64,000 nt of DNA from the NCBI RefSeq assembly GCF_056746865.1, contig NZ_CM163382.1. One strand, given 5' to 3'. The notes beneath the pieces were generated by a model. The model searched no databases, was not told the DNA's origin, and saw only the letters and a list, made by a program, of their open reading frames with translations. Positions 3,498 through 62,343 of the stretch are shown piece by piece; position 1 is the first letter of the stretch; the number at the start of each line of letters is the position of its first letter. The position numbers were made by a program, and so were the translations under genes.

Positions 3498-5105
3498 TCA
3501 ATGTGCCTTGATATACAACTCTTTGCTGTAGACATAATCCTGGGGATTATGCAGCGGAAAACCGCCAACGTAGGGTTTAAGCAGTTTGATTAACGGCTGA
3601 TAGTAGATAGGAATCAGCGGTGCCTGTTGGTTGATGATCACTTCTGCCTGCTGATACAACGCATTACGCTTTGTCGCATCAGTGATCTGCGTGGCCTGGT
3701 TTAGTAAGGCGTCATACTGCGCATTTTTCCAGTGACCGACGTTTTCTTCACTATCGCTTTTGAGCGTGTTCAGGAAGCTGGAAGCATCATTGTACGTCGC
3801 ATCCCACGACTGCCGAGACAGCATGAAATCACCGGCTCGTCGGGCATCAAGATAGGTTTTCCACTCCATTGTGCGCAGCGTCACCTGTGCACCCAGCCAT
3901 TTTTTCCATTCGGAAGACAACGCTATCGCGGTCTTTTCATGCAGATCGTACTTGTTGTAGAACAGCTCAAAGCGTAGCGGATGAGAGGCGTCGTATCCCG
4001 CCTGTTTCAGCAAGGCTTTTGCCATCGCGACGCGCTCACTCATTGGCTTTTGCAGTTCATCGAACGTCGTCGCGCTAAAGCCTTTTACCTCTGGCGGCGT
4101 CAGCGTGGTTGCGGGCGTTCTCAACCCCAGTACCTTTTGCGCAATAAGCTGTCGATCAACCGTAAGATATAGCGCCCGACGCACTCGCACATCGTTAAAT
4201 GGCGGTTTCTCAAGGTTGAAGTTGTAATATTCGCTGTTCAGACGCGGAATAATTCGTAGCTCGCCAGGCAGTGATTTTTCAATGGCGGGAATTTGCTGCG
4301 CCGGAACCCAGGTGAGATCGACCTCTCCCGCGCGATAGCGGTTATAGCCGGTGACCGAATTATCTAGCGCCAGATACTCAACCTGTTGCAATACTGTATG
4401 TTGCGCATCGCGGTACTTTGGATTTTTGCGTGCAGTAATCTTTTCGTTAACTACCCACTGATCAAGCACAAAGGCACCGTTGTAAACCATGTTCTCTGGC
4501 TTACTCCAGCTATCGCCATGTTTAGCGATGACATGATGAGGAACCGGGAACAGCGTCGGCCAGGCGAGCATCGTCGTGAACCAAGGAACCGGCTGCTCAA
4601 GCGTAACTTCAAGAGTACGATCATCCGTCGCTTTGACACCCAGCGATGTAACATCTGCTTTACCCGCAACAATAGCTGCGGCATTGTTAATGTGCGCCTG
4701 TGCCAGATAGCCAGCAAAAGGGCTTGCCGTTTTCGGGTCAACCGCGCGCTGCCAGCCGAGGACAAAATCCTCTGCCGTCAGAGGCTGACCGTCGGACCAC
4801 TGCAAACCGCTACGCAGATGGAAAATATAGCGCTTGCCGCCGTCCAGTATCTCCCAGCGTTCAGCCTGAGCGGGCTGCACCTGGCCTTCACCGTCCATCC
4901 ATACCAGACCTTCAAACAGATCCAGCACAATCTGCGCGGCAGTATTCTCCTCCACCTTTTGCGGGTCGAGCGTACCTGGGTCGCTATGATTGTTGTAACG
5001 AAAGACTTGTTGCGGGGCGAGCGGTGTGTTGGCGGGAACGTCAGCAGCGTAGAGAGGAGCCGCACTTACCAGGCTGACCAGCCATAATAAATTTCGCGTA
5101 TACAT
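3498..5105 (-). CDS. ygiS: Periplasmic solute-binding protein (ABC transporter family 5, oligopeptide-binding like)
   Basis: ORF 3498..5168 trimmed to internal Met preceding signal peptide MYTRNLLWLVSLVSAAPLYA; 535 aa like YgiS. Confidence 0.8.
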   Translation of the reverse strand: MYTRNLLWLVSLVSAAPLYAADVPANTPLAPQQVFRYNNHSDPGTLDPQKVEENTAAQIVLDLFEGLVWMDGEGQVQPAQAERWEILDGGKRYIFHLRSGLQWSDGQPLTAEDFVLGWQRAVDPKTASPFAGYLAQAHINNAAAIVAGKADVTSLGVKATDDRTLEVTLEQPVPWFTTMLAWPTLFPVPHHVIAKHGDSWSKPENMVYNGAFVLDQWVVNEKITARKNPKYRDAQHTVLQQVEYLALDNSVTGYNRYRAGEVDLTWVPAQQIPAIEKSLPGELRIIPRLNSEYYNFNLEKPPFNDVRVRRALYLTVDRQLIAQKVLGLRTPATTLTPPEVKGFSATTFDELQKPMSERVAMAKALLKQAGYDASHPLRFELFYNKYDLHEKTAIALSSEWKKWLGAQVTLRTMEWKTYLDARRAGDFMLSRQSWDATYNDASSFLNTLKSDSEENVGHWKNAQYDALLNQATQITDATKRNALYQQAEVIINQQAPLIPIYYQPLIKLLKPYVGGFPLHNPQDYVYSKELYIKAH

Positions 5106-47451: not shown

Positions 47452-49293
47452 ATGGAGCAAAACCCGCAGTCACAGCTGAAACTTCTTGTCACCCGTGGTA
47501 AGGAGCAAGGCTATCTGACCTATGCCGAGGTCAATGACCATCTGCCGGAAGATATCGTCGATTCAGATCAGATCGAAGACATCATCCAAATGATCAACGA
47601 CATGGGCATTCAGGTGATGGAAGAAGCACCGGATGCCGATGATCTGATGCTGGCTGAAAACACCGCGGACGAAGATGCTGCCGAAGCCGCCGCGCAGGTG
47701 CTTTCCAGCGTGGAATCTGAAATCGGGCGCACGACTGACCCGGTACGCATGTACATGCGTGAAATGGGCACCGTTGAACTGTTGACCCGCGAAGGCGAAA
47801 TTGACATCGCTAAGCGTATTGAAGACGGGATCAACCAGGTTCAATGCTCCGTTGCTGAATATCCGGAAGCGATCACCTATCTGCTGGAACAGTACGATCG
47901 TGTTGAAGCAGAAGAAGCGCGTCTGTCCGATCTGATCACCGGCTTTGTTGACCCGAACGCAGAAGAAGATCTGGCACCTACCGCCACTCACGTCGGTTCT
48001 GAGCTTTCCCAGGAAGATCTGGACGATGACGAAGATGAAGACGAAGAAGATGGCGATGACGACAGCGCCGATGATGACAACAGCATCGACCCGGAACTGG
48101 CTCGTGAAAAATTTGCGGAACTGCGCGCTCAGTACGTTGTAACGCGTGACACCATCAAAGCGAAAGGTCGCAGTCACGCTGCCGCTCAGGAAGAGATCCT
48201 GAAACTGTCTGAAGTATTCAAACAGTTCCGCCTGGTGCCGAAGCAGTTTGACTACCTGGTCAACAGCATGCGCGTCATGATGGACCGCGTTCGTACGCAA
48301 GAACGTCTGATCATGAAGCTCTGTGTTGAGCAGTGCAAAATGCCGAAGAAAAACTTCATTACCCTGTTTACCGGCAACGAAACCAGCGATACCTGGTTCA
48401 ACGCGGCAATTGCGATGAACAAGCCGTGGTCGGAAAAACTGCACGATGTCTCTGAAGAAGTGCATCGCGCCCTGCAGAAACTGCAGCAGATTGAAGAAGA
48501 AACCGGCCTGACCATCGAGCAGGTTAAAGATATCAACCGTCGTATGTCCATCGGTGAAGCGAAAGCCCGCCGTGCGAAGAAAGAGATGGTTGAAGCGAAC
48601 TTACGTCTGGTTATTTCTATCGCCAAGAAATACACCAACCGTGGCTTGCAGTTCCTTGACCTGATTCAGGAAGGTAACATCGGCCTGATGAAAGCGGTTG
48701 ATAAATTCGAATACCGCCGTGGTTACAAGTTCTCCACCTACGCAACCTGGTGGATCCGTCAGGCGATCACCCGTTCTATCGCGGATCAGGCGCGCACCAT
48801 CCGTATTCCGGTGCATATGATTGAGACTATCAACAAACTCAACCGTATTTCTCGCCAGATGCTGCAAGAGATGGGCCGTGAACCGACGCCGGAAGAACTG
48901 GCTGAACGTATGCTGATGCCGGAAGACAAGATCCGCAAAGTGCTGAAGATCGCCAAAGAGCCAATCTCCATGGAAACGCCGATCGGTGATGATGAAGATT
49001 CGCATCTGGGGGATTTCATCGAGGATACCACCCTCGAGCTGCCGCTGGATTCTGCGACCACCGAAAGCCTGCGTGCGGCAACGCACGACGTGCTGGCTGG
49101 CCTGACCGCGCGTGAAGCGAAAGTTCTGCGTATGCGCTTCGGTATCGATATGAACACCGACCACACGCTGGAAGAAGTGGGTAAACAGTTCGACGTTACC
49201 CGCGAACGTATCCGTCAGATCGAAGCGAAGGCGCTGCGCAAACTGCGTCACCCGAGCCGTTCTGAAGTGCTGCGTAGCTTCCTGGACGATTAA
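47452..49293 (+). CDS. rpoD: RNA polymerase sigma factor sigma-70
   Basis: 613 aa; acidic region 1.1-NCR, regions 2-4. Confidence 0.95.
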
Positions 49294-49346: not shown

Positions 49347-49374
49347 AACGCCACCTTTTCGGTGGCGTTTTTTA
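49347..49374 (+). terminator. rpoD intrinsic terminator
   Basis: ACGCCACC-TTTTC-GGTGGCGT followed by TTTTTT. Confidence 0.7.
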
Positions 49375-49878
49375 TCGCCCACGCACTACCAGCGCCTGGT
49401 CCAGCTCGCGATACGCTTCAACCAGTTTCTCCAGTGAAACGCGACTTAAACCACTGGGATTTGGCAGCACCCAAATCTGCGTCGAACCAATGGTGAGCGT
49501 TTGTTTCCCCCACTGTGCACCGCGCTGGCTGAATCCCTGTTCATATGCTTGTTTGCCCAGAATCGCCAACGCCTGTGGCTGATAATCTTCTATTTTTTCA
49601 ATTAGCTTACGCCCGCCTGCGTGCAGCTCCTGCTTTGAAACTTCATTGGCTTGCACCGTTGGACGGTCTACCAGTTTGGTGACGCCACAACGATAATCCA
49701 GCAGATGCTGTGCCTCCTGCGGCTTCAACTGACGGTCGGTAAACCCGGCCTGATATATCACCTTCCAGAAGCGATTTGCCGGATGAGCAAAGGGAAAACC
49801 AGTCCCGGCGGATGAAAGCCCAGGGTTGATACCGCAAAACACGACCCGTAACCCTGGAGCCAAAATATCCTCAACCAT
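49372..49878 (-). CDS. mug: G/U mismatch-specific DNA glycosylase
   Basis: 168 aa; [20 protein letters not shown]. Confidence 0.9.
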
Positions 49879-50003
49879 ATTTACTCCTTTCTAACATCAC
49901 CAGGAAAAGTATAACGGATTGAAAATACATTGTTTATAAAAACAGCAGGCGCGCGGTAATGGCTGGATTGCGACACGGAGTTACTTTATAATCCGCTACC
50001 ATG

Positions 50004-50078
50004 GCCCCTTAGCTCAGTGGTTAGAGCAGGCGACTCATAATCGCTTGGTCGTTGGTTCAAACCCAACAGGGGCCACCA
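50004..50078 (+). tRNA. ileX: tRNA-Ile (anticodon CAU; lysidine-modified Ile2 type)
   Basis: GGCCCCTTAGCTCAGTGGTTAGAGCAGGCGACTCATAATCGCTTGGTCGTTGGTTCAAACCCAACAGGGGCCACCA; cloverleaf with CAT anticodon in loop CTCATAA; encoded CCA. Confidence 0.9.
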
Positions 50079-50088
50079 TACACAACAA

Positions 50089-50121
50089 AGGGTTAGCTAA
50101 TAAACCAGCTAACCCTTTTTC
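50089..50121 (+). terminator. tRNA-Ile intrinsic terminator
   Basis: AGGGTTAGCT-AATAAACC-AGCTAACCCT followed by TTTTTCTTTTT. Confidence 0.65.
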
Positions 50122-50176
50122 TTTTTCCTTTGAATTGGGTCAGGTAATGGGTCAGGTAAGCTTTTTTCCATCTGAC

Positions 50177-51022
50177 TCAGATGGCTGATAATTGTCCCGG
50201 ATAACGCTTTGCAATGATGTCATTTAGCCGATCAACCAGTTCTGGTTTTCTGAATGTGATATGCGCGGAGCCCTTCTTAAAGTATCTGATGCTGAACATC
50301 TCATCTTCATAGCTCTCTTTACCCTGAACAGACTGAATGTGCTCATCCAGACGAATAGTGATGTTTTCCCGATTGTCGGGGATTGGTTTACCGCTGAACA
50401 GGTGCAACATTCTTTCCAGATCGGCGAGTCGGTCAGCCTGTTGTCCGGTGATAAGATGAAATCCCCACCGGTCCCATCTCACCAGATTGTTGACGATAAT
50501 TTTACTGCCAAATTTACAGGGGCAATTGGTTTTGTAATTCCAGTTCAGCCCTCTGAAGACGTTGATCACCCCTCGCTCAAACACCTCATCCTTATTCTGG
50601 TGCAGTTGTTCAAATGTGCTCAGGATGTTCGCTTCGCTGATTTCCGGAAAATTATCGTACTCCAGTGACCGGTACCATGTCTCACGGGCCTGTGCATCCA
50701 TTAAGGAAAGCATCCCGGAACGTTGCATCAAGTCACGCCAGATTTCACGATCGAGATTGTGTGTGATGGCTTTCATTGCCGTTTCAGGTTTCTCCATGAG
50801 CCAGCAGCCACAGCGAAAATCCTGTTTCATCGCCCAGTCCAGTGCGGTTTTACCGCCAATACTTTCTGTCATTGCTGAGATTTCAGCCAGTTGCCGGATA
50901 AGTGTGTTGATTTGCAGCAGTGTACTTTTTCGTACAGCCAGAATGTGGCGGATACTGGTTGAGCAGATAACGTCCGTATGCCCGTTGACTACTTCCGGAC
51001 GGGAGGCTGTGATATCAGACAT
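50177..51022 (-). CDS. Uncharacterised island protein (281 aa; possibly DUF4942 family)
   Basis: Long clean ORF at tRNA-proximal end of island; family assignment from memory only. Confidence 0.55.
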   Translation of the reverse strand: MSDITASRPEVVNGHTDVICSTSIRHILAVRKSTLLQINTLIRQLAEISAMTESIGGKTALDWAMKQDFRCGCWLMEKPETAMKAITHNLDREIWRDLMQRSGMLSLMDAQARETWYRSLEYDNFPEISEANILSTFEQLHQNKDEVFERGVINVFRGLNWNYKTNCPCKFGSKIIVNNLVRWDRWGFHLITGQQADRLADLERMLHLFSGKPIPDNRENITIRLDEHIQSVQGKESYEDEMFSIRYFKKGSAHITFRKPELVDRLNDIIAKRYPGQLSAI

Positions 51023-55229: not shown

Positions 55230-58076
55230 TCAGAAAGTCACATTCAGCGTGGCCTGACCGTTATAGCCTTCAGCGCTGTTGCCGCTGACACTGTGGGCAT
55301 AACCGGCCTGAACGCCCAGAGTGATATTTTCCCGGACACGGGCTTCCAGTCCGGCCTGCAGGTCCAGTGACGTGCCATTCTGTGACGGTGAGAACGTCAT
55401 GTTACTGCCGGCTTCAGCTGTACCCATGCTCATGTCACCCCGGGAGCTGAAAGTGCGGATAACAGAAGGCTGTACCCACCAGTTCACCGGCAGTTCACTC
55501 ACACGGTGTTTTGTACTGTCGCGCAGAGTGTCACGGGATGAGGTGCCTTCGCCAAAGGTCATATCGTTGTGGCTGCCCAGACGGAAGCCGGCACGCACAT
55601 GTTGTGTACTGCCATGCCCGAACTTCACATAACCGGCGTTATCCTGGCCGTCATCCAGGGAGAGCCCCTGCCAGGTGTACTGCAGTTGTGGCTCCAGCAT
55701 CAGGTTGTCAGTGATACTGAAGGGCAGACCGGTTTCCAGTGAGCCCAGCCAGCCCCAGCCCCGGGCGCGGAAGTCGTTATTGTCCGATGACGCTTTCATG
55801 CTGTGGCGGGTTCCCTGTGCCACAATGTCAGCCCACAGGCCGGAGGACGTGTGTGTCAGATTCAGGTATCCGCCCAGGCTGCCGGCATCATCCCGGACTG
55901 TGCCGGCGCGGGAACCGTCATCATCCTTAACATCAACGGAAGAATGACCTGCAGCACCATACACCCCTGTCGTCAGAGACATACCTGCAACCTCTGTTCT
56001 CAGCAGGTCACCCTCCAGACGGACGAAGCCATAGCTGCCGCTGCTTTCCGGCGTGGCTCCACGGGCAATACCGCCGTTGTTATCGTGACCGAGATGACCG
56101 CCCTGAATGCTGAGACGGACGCTGTTATTTTCACCGTTTACACCGGTCTGATGGCTGCGGGAGCCTGCCAGAATCCGGTCATAGTCCATTGCCTGTGTCA
56201 GCATGGAGGCATACAGGGGGACTTCAGCACGATAAGCATTTTCACTGCGCAGGTACCAGTCTTCATCGCTGTCACGGTTCAGGGTGTAGTTAAAGGCACC
56301 GGCCTGAAGCGGGCGACTCAGGGCAAACGCACCTTCTTCTGTGGTGGCACCATTCTGTGCATCCACAACCCGGATACCCTGTCCGGAGGTTGCCACCCCG
56401 AGGTTACTGTTTCCGACATTTGTGAACGCAAGCCAGGTTTTGCCGGTTGCCTGACCACCATTAATCACCAGCTGGTCAGAGGCATTGCTGCCATCAAGGC
56501 GAACACGCATATTGATGGTGCCACCCTGACCGGTGAGGTTACTGGTTGTCAGTTTATGGAACGTTACCGGGGCGTTGCCTTTTGCAACAGCACGGCTCAG
56601 TATGGCATCCGGTGTTGTCTGATTGTCAAAGTAAATCTCCCCTGCGTTAACAATATCGCCGGTACTGACCACATCACCATTCAGTACCATGCTGGCGCCT
56701 TTACTGAGCTGTGTTCTGCCACTCAGACTTCCCCCGGCAGCCAGCATCAGTGTTCCACGATGTCCGACAGTGGTGTTGCCAGCCTGTCCCCCGGCATTAA
56801 CCGTAAAGCTGCCGCCATTTTCCAGCAGCAGGCCGCTGGCCTGACCGGATATGCCATCAATACTGAACTTACCGCTGGCATTGGTCCCCTCAACAGTGGC
56901 ACCACTGTCTGCAATCAGGGCACCACCGGATGTCATGGTGACACCTGTCGCCTTACCACCGGCAGACACTGCCAGGGTTCCGCCGTCATCCACCCGTGTT
57001 TTCTGCGCTGAATGGCCCTCCAGTACATCCAGGCGACCGCCGGACTCCAGAACAACACCGTCAGCCTTACCGTTTTCCACCGTGAAATTCCCCAGACGGT
57101 TGCTGCCGGTGACGGTTGCCGCCGTACTGGTGACCAGTGCGCCGCCCTGCTTCAGGGTGACATTCGTGGCTGTACCACCGGCGTTCACCTGCAGTTTGCC
57201 TTTCTGGTTAACGGTGGAGAAATCCGCCAGACCACCTTCCTTGATAATCTGCCAGCCGTCACTGTTTACAACAGTGCCAGACGCCGTACCGCCGTTGTGC
57301 ACATACTGGTACCCCCCATTCAGCGTGGTATCCAGTGCGTGACCATGTACAGTCTGGTCGCCGCCGGCATAAACCACAGTGGTATTTGCCGTTCCTTCAG
57401 CAGCCACAATCTGACGACCATTTTTATTGATGGTGGTGCGTACGGCATCTCCGTAGACGGTCTGCCCGGTATCACCATTTTCTGCATCCGGTCCCCCTTC
57501 CGCGCCGGTATTCACAACCGTGTCGGTTGCCATTGCGCCGGATTTGACGGCCTGCCAGCCCTTCTCATTAATGACGGTACCCGTTGCAATCCCGCCTTCA
57601 TGTATCCACTGCTCACCGCCGTTCAGAGTGGTGTTCACTGCCTGCCCCTGAAGGCTCTGTCCGCCTCCGGCACTGATAACCGTGTCTGAAACGCTTCCTC
57701 CGGCATTCACTCTCTGAAGACCACCACCGGTGACAGTAGTGTTGTTGGCGGTACCGCCATTTTGTATCCATTGGCCGCCGGTATTCGCCTCGTTATCCGG
57801 CCCATACTCCAGCCCGGTACTGATGGTCATTCCGTTGGCCGTACCGAAGACAATCTGGTTGTCATGATTTGTCAGTGTTCCGCCGCTCACGGTTTCTCCC
57901 GCCTGTACGACCGTGTCAGCAGCCAGTACCGGGACTGACGTGACAGCAGCAAGAGACAGCGCAACCGCCACACCGGTGCGTTTTCCCCGTGAGCGCGCCA
58001 GTTCGGAAGCCACCACCAGGGTGCCCGTAATGTGATTCCATACCAGCCTGTAGCTGGTGTTCAGATGTCGTTTCAT
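55230..58076 (-). CDS. flu: Antigen 43 self-associating autotransporter adhesin (short ~950 aa variant)
   Basis: ORF trimmed to MKRHLNTSYRLVWNHITGTLVVASELARSRGKR extended signal peptide; beta-helical passenger repeats; C-terminal beta-barrel ending ...YNGQATLNVTF. Confidence 0.9.
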   Translation of the reverse strand: MKRHLNTSYRLVWNHITGTLVVASELARSRGKRTGVAVALSLAAVTSVPVLAADTVVQAGETVSGGTLTNHDNQIVFGTANGMTISTGLEYGPDNEANTGGQWIQNGGTANNTTVTGGGLQRVNAGGSVSDTVISAGGGQSLQGQAVNTTLNGGEQWIHEGGIATGTVINEKGWQAVKSGAMATDTVVNTGAEGGPDAENGDTGQTVYGDAVRTTINKNGRQIVAAEGTANTTVVYAGGDQTVHGHALDTTLNGGYQYVHNGGTASGTVVNSDGWQIIKEGGLADFSTVNQKGKLQVNAGGTATNVTLKQGGALVTSTAATVTGSNRLGNFTVENGKADGVVLESGGRLDVLEGHSAQKTRVDDGGTLAVSAGGKATGVTMTSGGALIADSGATVEGTNASGKFSIDGISGQASGLLLENGGSFTVNAGGQAGNTTVGHRGTLMLAAGGSLSGRTQLSKGASMVLNGDVVSTGDIVNAGEIYFDNQTTPDAILSRAVAKGNAPVTFHKLTTSNLTGQGGTINMRVRLDGSNASDQLVINGGQATGKTWLAFTNVGNSNLGVATSGQGIRVVDAQNGATTEEGAFALSRPLQAGAFNYTLNRDSDEDWYLRSENAYRAEVPLYASMLTQAMDYDRILAGSRSHQTGVNGENNSVRLSIQGGHLGHDNNGGIARGATPESSGSYGFVRLEGDLLRTEVAGMSLTTGVYGAAGHSSVDVKDDDGSRAGTVRDDAGSLGGYLNLTHTSSGLWADIVAQGTRHSMKASSDNNDFRARGWGWLGSLETGLPFSITDNLMLEPQLQYTWQGLSLDDGQDNAGYVKFGHGSTQHVRAGFRLGSHNDMTFGEGTSSRDTLRDSTKHRVSELPVNWWVQPSVIRTFSSRGDMSMGTAEAGSNMTFSPSQNGTSLDLQAGLEARVRENITLGVQAGYAHSVSGNSAEGYNGQATLNVTF

Positions 58077-58293
58077 CAGCTTTTCCTTACAGAGGGTGAA
58101 TAAAAAAGCCGGTACCCACAAATGTGGATACCGGCAGGTACAAAACAGCATGGTCAGATAAAGTGGTTTTTCCCGGACATAAATGCTTCCCCTCTCTCAT
58201 CCGCCAGAGAAGTATCAGTCCGTTGTGTGCAATTCCGTTCTGCATGATGAAGAGATTCAACTGCCTTTTCGCAGGCCATTAACCACTATAAAC

Positions 58294-58329
58294 GATCGAT
58301 AGTAACGATCGATACCTGTTTTATTGATC
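58294..58329. promoter_or_regulatory. Three clustered Dam GATC sites (Ag43 phase-variation switch / OxyR operator)
   Basis: GATC at 58294, 58307 and 58326 within 36 bp (AACGATCGATAGTAACGATCGATACCTGTTTTATTGATCG) ~220 bp upstream of Ag43 start. Confidence 0.7.
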
Positions 58330-58448
58330 GTTTTATTCTATTGATTGCAAGGCGGTCACGCAAGAGAAACAGGAGGATCATGAGGTGTTTGTGTCATGTT
58401 TTCAGTTGGTTAACGCAATGTAATCAGGCATTTCCCCTGGCAGACTGT

Positions 58449-59584: not shown

Positions 59585-61141
59585 ATGACAAGTATTCAAC
59601 AACGAGCAGAACTGCACCGCCAGATATGGCAAATTGCCAATGATGTCAGAGGTTCTGTTGACGGATGGGATTTTAAGCAATACGTTCTGGGCGCACTTTT
59701 CTACCGTTTTATCAGCGAAAATTTTTCCAGTTATATTGAAGCCGGTGATGACAGTATCTGTTATGCGAAACTGGATGACAGCGTAATTACTGATGACATT
59801 AAAGACGATGCCATCAAAACTAAAGGCTACTTCATCTACCCCAGTCAGCTTTTCTGCAACGTAGCGGCGAAAGCAAATACTAATGACAGGCTGAATGCAG
59901 ATTTAAACAGCATCTTCGTTGCTATCGAAAGTTCTGCTTACGGTTATCCTTCAGAAGCTGACATCAAAGGTTTGTTTGCTGATTTCGATACCACCAGTAA
60001 CCGCCTGGGTAACACCGTTAAGGATAAAAATGCCCGCCTGGCTGCGGTTCTGAAAGGGGTTGAAGGGTTAAAACTTGGTGACTTCAACGAACATCAGATT
60101 GACCTGTTCGGTGATGCCTATGAGTTCCTGATTTCTAACTATGCGGCAAATGCCGGTAAGTCAGGCGGTGAGTTCTTTACACCGCAGCACGTCTCCAGGC
60201 TGATTGCACAACTGGCTATGCACGGGCAGACCAGCGTTAACAAAATCTACGACCCGGCAGCGGGTTCCGGCTCACTGTTGTTGCAGGCGAAAAAACAGTT
60301 TGATAACCACATCATCGAAGAAGGCTTTTTCGGTCAGGAAATCAACCATACGACCTATAACCTGGCGCGTATGAACATGTTTTTGCACAACATCAACTAC
60401 GACAAGTTTGATATCAAGCTGGGTAATACACTGACTGAGCCACACTTCAGAGATGAAAAACCGTTTGATGCCATCGTTTCTAACCCGCCGTATTCGGTGA
60501 AATGGATTGGCAGCGATGACCCGACGCTGATTAACGATGAACGTTTTGCCCCGGCTGGCGTTCTGGCCCCCAAATCAAAAGCTGACTTCGCCTTTGTACT
60601 ACATGCGCTGAACTATCTTTCTGCCAAAGGTCGCGCCGCGATTGTCTGCTTCCCGGGTATTTTTTACCGTGGCGGCGCGGAGCAGAAAATCCGTCAGTAT
60701 CTGGTCGATAATAACTATGTCGAAACCGTGATTTCACTGGCACCGAACCTGTTCTTTGGCACCACCATTGCCGTCAATATTCTGGTGCTGTCTAAACATA
60801 AAACGGATACCAAAGTTCAGTTTATTGACGCCAGCGAACTGTTCAAAAAAGAGACTAATAACAACATCCTGACCGATGCTCATATCGAACAGATTATGCA
60901 GGTATTTGCCGGCAAGGAAGATGTTGCTCATCTGGCGAAATCTGTCACGTTTGAGACTGTTGTCGCGAATGACTATAACCTGTCGGTGAGCAGCTATGTG
61001 GAAGCGAAAGATAACCGCGAAGTGGTGGACATTGCTCAGCTCAACGCCGAGCTGAAATCTACTGTCGCCAGGATTGACCAGCTTCGCAGGGATATTGATG
61101 CCATCGTCGCTGAAATTGAAGGCGAGGAGCAGGAGGCATGA
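59585..61141 (+). CDS. hsdM: Type I restriction-modification methyltransferase subunit HsdM (type IC, EcoR124-like)
   Basis: 518 aa; SAM-binding DPAAGSGS and catalytic NPPY motif; overlaps hsdS by 4 nt. Confidence 0.9.
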
Positions 61142-62343
61142 GTAGCGTGAACTTCTTGGAAAAGCTGTTGGATGGCGTTGAGGTCGAGTGGAAGACACTT
61201 GGGCAAACTTGCAAAATTGAAACAGGAAAGCTTAATGCGAATGCGGCTGTTGATGATGGAGAGTATATGTTCTTCACGACAGCCAAAGAGACAAGCAAAA
61301 TTGATAAATTCCGCTGGGATACAGAGGCATTGCTGATTGCAGGCAATGCGAATGTTGGTGAGGTGAAGCATTACATCGGCAAGTTTGAGGCTTATCAGCG
61401 CACCTATGTTCTGACAAATTTCGACGAAAATGTAAGTGTTAGATTTTTGTATTTTGTGCTTAGCCATAGCCTGAAGAAATATCTCGAGGAAAGAACAAAT
61501 AGCGCGGCAATGACATATATCGTGCTATCAACCTTAGAGAATTTCCCTATCCCCATCCCCTGCCCAGGCAACCCCCAAAAATCCCTTGCCATCCAGTCTG
61601 AAATCGTTCGGATTCTGGATAAATTTACTGCACTTACCGCTGAGCTTACCGCTGAGCTTAACATGCGTAAAAAACAGTACAACTACTATCGCGACCAGTT
61701 GTTGAGTTTTAAAGAGGGTGAGGTTGAGTGGAAGACTTTGGGGGAAATTGGAGATTTTACATATGGATATGCAGCCAAAGCCATGGATTCAGGAGATGCC
61801 CGTTTCGTGAGAATTACTGACATAAATAAAGACGGGAAGCTATCGAAAGAAAACCCAATGTACGTTGAATTAAATGAGGAAAATGAGAAATATACCTTAG
61901 ACAAAAATGATTTACTCATGGCAAGAACTGGGGCAACCTTTGGTAAAACAATGATTTTTGAAGAAGATTATCCAGCAGTATACGCTGGTTTTTTAATAAA
62001 GTTGAACCTAAATAAAACGATTATTAATGCCAAATATTACTGGCACTTTGCACAAAGTGATTTTTTTTGGGAACAGGCTAATAAATTAGTATCTGGTGGT
62101 GGGCAACCACAGTTTAATGCTAATGCACTGAAACAAGTCAGAGTACCTATTCCATACCCATCTCACCCTCAAAAATCTTTAGACGAACAGGGGCGTATTG
62201 TGGATATTCTGGATAAGTTTGATGCAATCGCAGCTTCCATCACCGAAGGTCTCCCGCGTGAAATCGAGTTACGTCAAAAACAATACGAATACTATCGTGA
62301 TTTACTGCTCAGTTTCCCAAAACCTGAAACTGTCAGTAAATAA
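61138..62343 (+). CDS. hsdS: Type I R-M specificity subunit HsdS (type IC)
   Basis: 401 aa; two TRDs separated by central conserved region with TAELTAEL repeat and conserved KKQYxYYRDxLLSF blocks after each TRD. Confidence 0.85.
61627..61659 (+). repeat. Tandem 12-bp repeat (ACCGCTGAGCTT x2, preceded by partial ACTGCACTT) encoding TAEL-TAEL in hsdS
   Basis: Direct reading of hsdS codons 164-174: [11 protein letters not shown]. Confidence 0.8.

Follow-up and report, generated by a model that had tools for sequence, protein, structure and literature searches.

What is the short, exactly doubled sequence that separates a tRNA gene from the first gene of a genomic island in Escherichia coli, and what might it do there? 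The window analyzed here, a stretch of 64,000 nucleotides from contig NZ_CM163382.1, covers the rpoD-mug-ileX region, with rpoD at 47452-49293, mug at 49372-49878 on the minus strand and an island inserted in ileX, the gene for tRNA-Ile2 (anticodon CAU), at 50003-50078 on the plus strand. ARAGORN labels this gene tRNA-Met (CAT) and RefSeq labels it tRNA-Ile, that is, ileX. In some strains (ECCNB12-2; L003, 18853-19416), an extra NADAR-family gene lies between rpoD and mug, and both the window and K-12 are without it.

The island gene nearest to the repeat encodes a DUF4942 protein (50177-51022, minus strand; ORF list, PF13708 at 7.6e-69 and RefSeq) and is the last gene of a CP4-type module. 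From the tRNA inward, this minus-strand module comprises DUF4942, DUF957, DUF5983, the CbtA toxin, a YeeU-type antitoxin, DUF987, a JAB/RadC protein, an antirestriction protein, DUF932, Ag43 and a GTPase, and is followed by a type I restriction-modification system on the plus strand. The same gene module (YeeV/CbtA-YeeU, Ag43, YeeP GTPase, DUF4942) is found in CP4-57/CP4-44-type elements of E. coli. Unlike these elements, however, the island has a different integrase and a different target, tRNA-Ile2, and the distal end of its module faces the tRNA.

An exact tandem repeat between ileX and the island genes

We found GGGTCAGGTAATGGGTCAGGTAAG at 50137-50160 of the window. It holds two exact copies of the 11-mer GGGTCAGGTAA (a point-mutant form of which would be, for example, GGGAGTGGTAA), lying on the plus strand at 50137-50147 and 50149-50159. 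The copies stand in a 12-bp register and are referred to below as the proposed arm-type integrase binding sites P'-a and P'-b. The doubling reported by the initial annotation is therefore real, with its interval of 50138-50160 one base off. When the preceding T is counted, the unit becomes a perfect 12-mer, TGGGTCAGGTAA, repeated twice in tandem at 50136-50159. No further copy of GGGTCAGGTAA occurs within the 64-kb window, even with one mismatch tolerated. The DUF4942 gene ends 17 bp past the repeat, with its stop codon at 50177-50179.

We estimated how often such a structure arises by chance by counting exact tandem repeats of at least 11 nt with a period of 11-14 in 200 windows simulated under a first-order Markov model. 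The expectation was 0.06 such repeats per window, and any were present in only 12 of the 200 simulated windows. The real window contains three; besides the present one, these are repeats of known function.

One of them, a perfect 12-bp tandem repeat at 61633-61656, lies inside the type I hsdS gene (61138-62343) and encodes TAEL-TAEL, the central repeat of variable length in type IC specificity subunits such as those of EcoR124I/II. In EcoR124I/II, the number of TAEL copies alters the spacer of the recognition site. A GATC-rich repeat with a 13-bp period (…cgatcaat…tatcgatcgttactatcgatcgttta…) occupies 58290-58335 on the minus strand, upstream of the Ag43 gene (55230-58151), and matches the known Dam/OxyR phase-variation switch region of agn43.

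The island begins inside the tRNA gene

To locate the start of the island, we aligned the window with the empty site of K-12, where ileX is followed directly by nfeF and no copy of GGGTCAGGTAA is present. The comparison with an island-free locus proposed in the initial annotation thus shows the repeat to be absent from the host site. The two sequences are identical up to 50051, are homologous but diverged after the CCA, and lose all similarity just before the repeat. Within the T arm, the window has GTTGGTTCAAACCCAAC and K-12 has GCTGGTTCAAGTCCAGC, which differ by one compensated stem pair and two loop bases. The rho-independent terminator that follows (50087-50128, plus strand; hairpin at 50087-50118 and then a T-run in the terminator scan) is a diverged homologue of the native ileX terminator, with compensatory changes in the stem and a conserved T-run. 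The terminator of strain CX21 is a third version, compensated too. Since the divergence starts at 50052, both the final 27 nt of the tRNA and the terminator belong to the island. The island supplies the T arm and the 3' acceptor strand (50052-50078), which differ from the K-12 allele, and the K-12-type version is displaced to attR, beside nfeF. To judge from this alignment, ileX is a hybrid gene, its 5' part chromosomal and its 3' part, from 50052 on, derived from the island. The placement first given for the repeat, between the tRNA terminator and the first island gene, is right insofar as the repeat follows the hairpin and precedes the DUF4942 stop codon; the terminator itself, however, is supplied by the island and is not chromosomal.

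The island-type T arm GTTGGTTCAAACCCAAC occurs as the native remnant in loci of Kluyvera, Enterobacter and Escherichia sp. ESNIH1. This match hints at where the tRNA segment of the island may have originated.

The sequence common to attL of the window and attR of strains CUPS03 and PEC148, which defines the att core, is the 20-bp identity block GACTCATAATCGCTTGGTCG (50032-50051, plus strand). It is unchanged in 24 P arms (the arms adjoining the integrase gene). The segment of strand exchange is probably the anticodon loop CTCATAA (50034-50040). We place it there because in a Tenebrionibacter locus (L032, about 2700-2790) the similarity to the tRNA ends directly after ATGACTCATAAT. This fixes the anatomy of the junction, in which the boundary of the island falls within the tRNA, at the anticodon loop, instead of behind the terminator.

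Two variants of this region were seen in other genera. In the Tenebrionibacter locus, the non-tRNA sequence beyond ATGACTCATAAT suggests an insertion at a secondary site or a deletion. In Erwinia mediterraneensis (L020), the displaced fragment carries a mutated anticodon loop, CTCACAA.

The doublet recurs at the far end of the island

The window contains attL only, and we observed int and attR in other genomes with the same island. This island occupies ileX in strain CUPS03 (98% identity over 13.9 kb) and ileY in strain PEC148 (99.9% identity). In CUPS03 it is about 61 kb long and terminates by nfeF with the gene for a 438-aa tyrosine integrase. Read in the orientation of the window, its far end consists of the int start codon, a 48-bp spacer, TTGGGTCAGGTAATGGGTCAGGTAA, 126 bp of AT-rich DNA, GACTCATAATCGCTTGGTCGCTGGTTCAAGTCCAGCAGGGGCCACCA, a K-12-type terminator and nfeF. 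The tRNA-like segment GACTCATAATCGCTTGGTCGCTGGTTCAAGTCCAGCAGGGGCCACCA is the displaced original 3' part of ileX, from the anticodon loop on. The doublet of the far end thus lies 126 bp from the displaced tRNA fragment and 48 bp upstream of the int ATG, and in CUPS03 and PEC148 alike the 25-bp TTGGGTCAGGTAATGGGTCAGGTAA is identical to the doublet of the window and has the same orientation. The far end has the same arrangement in PEC148, where the displaced fragment is of the ileY type (…CAGCAAGGGCCACCA), with the ypjC side of the ileY locus coming next.

Because the distal module of the island faces the tRNA, we had first suspected that the chromosome was inverted between ileX and ileY, two genes of opposite orientation. 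We ruled this out, as CUPS03 has ileX and its flanks at their normal position and orientation. The integrase and a displaced ileX fragment at the far end by nfeF also speak against an inversion, as does the ileY-type remnant at ileY. The ileX- and ileY-type remnants therefore reflect independent site-specific insertions. As read from these junctions, the island is one that inserts site-specifically into either tRNA-Ile2 gene, ileX or ileY.

Depending on the E. coli strain, either ileX (CUPS03; L004/L006) or ileY (PEC148; L005/L007) is occupied by the same island, at 98-99.9% identity. The tRNA rebuilt at ileY combines the ileY 5' acceptor strand with the 3' strand of the island, which produces one G-U pair.

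The repeat thus lies on the island side of both junctions, its first base 100 bp from the loop centre in attL and its last base 132 bp from it in attR. In the diverged 56-kb island of strain CT01, we counted five copies of the motif, two direct copies by ileX and two direct copies plus an inverted one before int; no exact copy occurs there apart from those on the two arms. All 8-mers common to both arms derive from the doubled motif, except for an isolated TAAACCAG in the E. coli type.

These positions bear on whether the repeat could itself be the att core, a target-site duplication or an integration scar, as its location at the junction and its recurrence at the far end of the island might suggest. 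Against this, the motif is absent from K-12 attB and lies, at both ends, on the island side and 100-132 bp from the true identity block. The latter sits inside the tRNA, flanked by host-specific T arms in one case and by island-specific ones in the other. We therefore regard this reading as very improbable. The suggestion of an integration scar is not borne out, as the repeat is island-borne on both arms and missing from K-12 ileX. That of an attachment-site remnant survives in part: the repeat belongs to the att region and is found at both island ends, as the proposed look at the far end reveals, but it does not mark the att core, and the crossover would fall in the anticodon loop of the tRNA.

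The islands carry further insertions and diverse cargo. The 61-kb island of CUPS03 is a composite, with a second tyrosine integrase by a fragment derived from RtT/tyrT (L006, 25000-29000; 680-684 kb of the record), several IS elements and a group II intron. The second integrase and its tRNA-derived fragment suggest that another element was captured inside this island. The diverged ileX island of the Alberta strains CT01 and CX21 (L096; 667-700 kb of the CT01 record) carries a Klebsiella-like glycerol/1,3-propanediol (dha) cargo and a cadmium/lead resistance module.

Motif and spacing are kept while the arms diverge

On the P' arm, next to the rebuilt tRNA, CX21 and CT01 are heavily substituted in the spacer, the terminator and the downstream gene, and nevertheless retain an exact TTGGGTCAGGTAATGGGTCAGGTAAG. 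Five of six E. coli P' arms keep both copies. The exception is UTAK-8 (L008, 1559-1569), where a clean 12-bp deletion has left a single 11-mer. Since this island has one copy, two are not needed for an island to persist; single-copy islands of this type may nonetheless be impaired in excision or have lost mobility. The 80-90% identity band to which UTAK-8 belongs contains 11 of 463 genomes.

On the P arm, the tandem 11-mers are exact in all eight E. coli islands and in two further arms of CT01, even though three of the eight are accompanied by integrases only 85% identical and by strongly diverged flanks. We extended the comparison to other species by scanning one genome per species, which returned 77 loci with a related integrase, and by comparing their P arms. 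Both copies are exact in 20 of 20 species-representative loci with an integrase 84-99% identical, 19 of which belong to other genera. These loci include Yersinia, Erwinia, Brenneria, Kluyvera, Phytobacter, Buttiauxella, Kosakonia, Cedecea, Photorhabdus, Citrobacter, Siccibacter and E. albertii. Measured from the int ATG, the copies lie at -71/-59 in 18 of the 20 loci; the two exceptions have them at -70/-58 and -67/-55. An exact third copy, inverted, is found at -36 (-33 in L035) in 18 of the 20 loci; it is present also in the diverged E. coli islands and absent from the island type of the window.

To compare the motif with its surroundings, we aligned 24 distinct P arms, a set chosen by integrase similarity and not by the motif. 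Invariant columns account for 22 of 22 positions in the motif, 39 of 126 in the spacer toward the core and 4 of 50 in the flank toward int. Repeat and core lie 126 bp apart in every P arm except one with 125 bp, and this distance is kept in Kluyvera sichuanensis though the sequence of the spacer is largely different. Between repeat and core, an IHF-consensus site (YAANNNNTTGATW) is conserved, with variation at the N positions.

Being a perfect 12-bp tandem duplication between genes, the repeat could in principle be a neutral, functionless product of slippage in non-coding DNA, and the single copy of UTAK-8 indicates that copy number can change. Slippage is nevertheless hardly credible as the explanation, given that the same doublet occurs on both arms, is exact in all 20 species loci and in every inspected E. 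coli P arm amid diverging flanks, and stands at a fixed spacing from the core.

More distant integrases have doublets of their own

Next to integrases that are 36-57% identical, we found tandem repeats at the same place and with a period of 12-13, of a sequence that is specific to the lineage; one example is TTACGTCACCC-like. Pantoea and Erwinia have TTACGTCACCy/CTACATCACCC, with an inverted GGGTGACGTAA in two loci. The unit is TTAGATCACCC in Vibrio hannami (two copies plus inverted ones), TAACTTGACCC in another Vibrio species, TTACTTGACCC in Proteus and Providencia, and TAACTTAAGCAG in Gilliamella, each present twice. Photorhabdus and Xenorhabdus show CTAAGACACCC/TTAGAGCACCC, Pseudomonas carries AACTGTCACCA and CTAACAGACACCT, in two copies each, and Psychromonas has four copies of TTACTrCAGGC. 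The sequence of the doublet may follow the lineage of the integrase, from TTACCTGACCC through TTACTTGACCC, TTAGATCACCC and CTAAGACACCC to AACTGTCACCA.

These examples raise the possibility that a tandem doublet of 12-13 bp in front of int, recurring on the other arm at a fixed distance, is a general and readable signature of integrases with a PF13356 domain. We offer this generalization tentatively and rather doubt that it extends so far.

Candidate arm-type sites of the island integrase

In CUPS03 and in CT01, the island integrase contains an Arm-DNA-bind_3 domain (PF13356; residues 5-97, E = 1.4e-14), a central domain and a PF00589 catalytic domain. What marks arm-type sites comes together at this locus: an arm-binding domain in the integrase, a motif outside the core that is present on both arms and absent from K-12 attB, conservation of this motif and of its distance to the core amid diverging arm sequence, and a motif that changes with the integrase lineage. 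The layout is also that of a P4-type attP, with units of 12 bp, a tandem pair by int, an inverted copy in most relatives and a pair on the opposite arm. We propose, with a probability of about 0.8, that the doublet of the window represents the P'-arm binding sites in attL for the P4-family tyrosine integrase of the island itself. As far as the sequence can tell, the repeat belongs to a functional attachment site that spans about 277 bp. Among the first interpretations, that of a small regulatory repeat comes closest in spirit, although the doublet seems best explained as a candidate protein-binding site, of the arm type, for the integrase.

In the reconstructed attP, int is transcribed outward and is followed by the inverted copy (in most relatives), the tandem pair, 126 bp with the IHF-consensus site, the core in the anticodon loop, the replacement 3' part of the tRNA with its terminator and, 100 bp from the centre of the loop, a second tandem pair. 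Strand exchange in the anticodon loop would let the island enter either tRNA-Ile2 gene, ileX or ileY. Of the two pairs, the second is the repeat of the window and, once the island has integrated, stays in attL by the rebuilt tRNA; the first pair is left in attR before int. If lambda, P4 and KplE1 are a guide, the arm-binding domains at the N termini of the integrase protomers would hold the repeats and the catalytic domains the core, and bending of the intervening DNA (of the IHF type) would bring both together in an intasome, for excision from the chromosome or, in the circular form, for integration. The attR pair may in addition let the integrase repress its own gene. A simple sigma-70 scan of the P arm returned no promoter match, so that autoregulation of int is argued by analogy only. 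We infer from the arrangement as a whole that the integrase physically binds the repeats, that recombination needs them and that int is autoregulated.

Phage P4 provides the closest parallel. The annotation of its record (NC_001609) includes 12-bp attP arm sequence repeats: one inverted copy lies at the int ATG, and two tandem pairs, at 3942-3965 and, on the other arm, at 4151-4174, enclose the core (4078-4097). These arm repeats were reportedly described by Pierson and Kahn in 1987. The island integrase is a homologue of P4 Int (22% identity, E = 1e-15). Shared between the two systems are the 12-bp units, the tandem pair just upstream of int, the inverted copy near the int start, a core within a tRNA gene about 110-130 bp off, a second co-oriented pair on the other arm and a PF13356 integrase. 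The motif, however, is unrelated (TATGCCCCCAA-like in P4), and P4 targets the 3' end of leuX, whereas here the crossover would take place in the anticodon loop of tRNA-Ile2. The geometry differs as well. In P4, the tRNA has the same sense as int and int therefore ends up beside the intact tRNA. In our case, the tRNA is antisense to int, so that int lies beside the displaced fragment, the repeat of the window lies by the rebuilt tRNA, and the P' arm must restore the 3' part of the tRNA and provide a terminator ahead of the binding sites. Among 33 relatives scanned with ARAGORN, no intact tRNA was found by int except for an antisense tRNA-Gly in one Pseudomonas locus, which agrees with the antisense geometry of the clade.

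Similar features are known from more distant systems. In lambda and KplE1, arm-type sites are bound by the N-terminal domain of the integrase and take part in intasome assembly, and in KplE1 they overlap the int promoter, which results in negative autoregulation (PMC2951348). The sites of lambda (P1, P2, P'1-P'3) and the P' sites of KplE1 IntS resemble those proposed here in that a heterobivalent integrase is accompanied by short repeats outside the core on both arms, with IHF-type sites in between. They differ in the family of the N-terminal domain and in the motif; here, the sites form strict 12-bp doublets and are known from the sequence. A study of 2023 described the doubled motif tgTGTATTGCantgTGTATTGCa in the attP of helper-embedded PICIs, which have an integrase of another clade, 81 and 132 bp from the attP centre (PMC10111431). 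Both elements have a 12-bp register and two co-oriented copies on either side of the attP centre, at 81/132 bp there and 100/132 bp here. The integrase clade, the targets and the motif are different, and the binding protein is putative in both cases.

The protein that binds the repeats could instead be the AlpA-family directionality factor or regulator of the island, or another accessory DNA-binding protein. The island has an AlpA-family gene (PF05930, E = 4e-13) that is 68-79% conserved across diverged islands, and the authors of the PICI study leave the directionality-factor option open for their analogous doubled motif (PMC10111431). The repeats of the window are direct and have a period of 12, and sites of directionality factors, too, are as a rule direct repeats, spaced by roughly one helical turn (PMC7498355). 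Because AlpA is about as conserved as int, covariation cannot tell the two candidate proteins apart. The motif occurs, however, on both arms and in the same orientation, which speaks against a directionality factor. In lambda and P4, sites for such factors are on one arm only. Moreover, a domain dedicated to arm binding is present in the integrase and, the isolated 8-mer TAAACCAG aside, there is no other shared run on both arms to serve it; the same layout is annotated as arm repeats in P4; and the near-identical motif TTACTTGACCC persists with integrases only 39% identical. Altogether, we consider binding by AlpA or another accessory protein unlikely and favor the integrase as the protein that would occupy the doublets.

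Significance of the doublet

Sites of this kind are textbook features, annotated in P4, and the motif adds one well-supported example to a known mechanism. A full-text literature search for the 11-mer GGGTCAGGTAA returned unrelated matches of the primer type only, and a search for ileX islands returned brief mentions only; in the searchable literature, we found no description of the motif or of the att site of this tRNA-Ile2-specific integrase.

If the doublets turned out to be a general signature of PF13356 integrases, they would amount to a recognition code with which to delimit attP and to predict or re-engineer the specificity of many tRNA-borne islands. If, alternatively, AlpA-type factors rather than the integrase bound them, the current view of P4-family att sites would need revision.

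A simple sequence marker, the doubled GGGTCAGGTAA with its constant distances to the tRNA-Ile2 anticodon loop, delimits the islands of this family. It applies to E. coli and to at least 19 other species, in islands whose cargo comprises Ag43, toxin-antitoxin, restriction-modification and metabolic genes, and it also flags variants with a possible loss of mobility, such as the single-copy island of UTAK-8.
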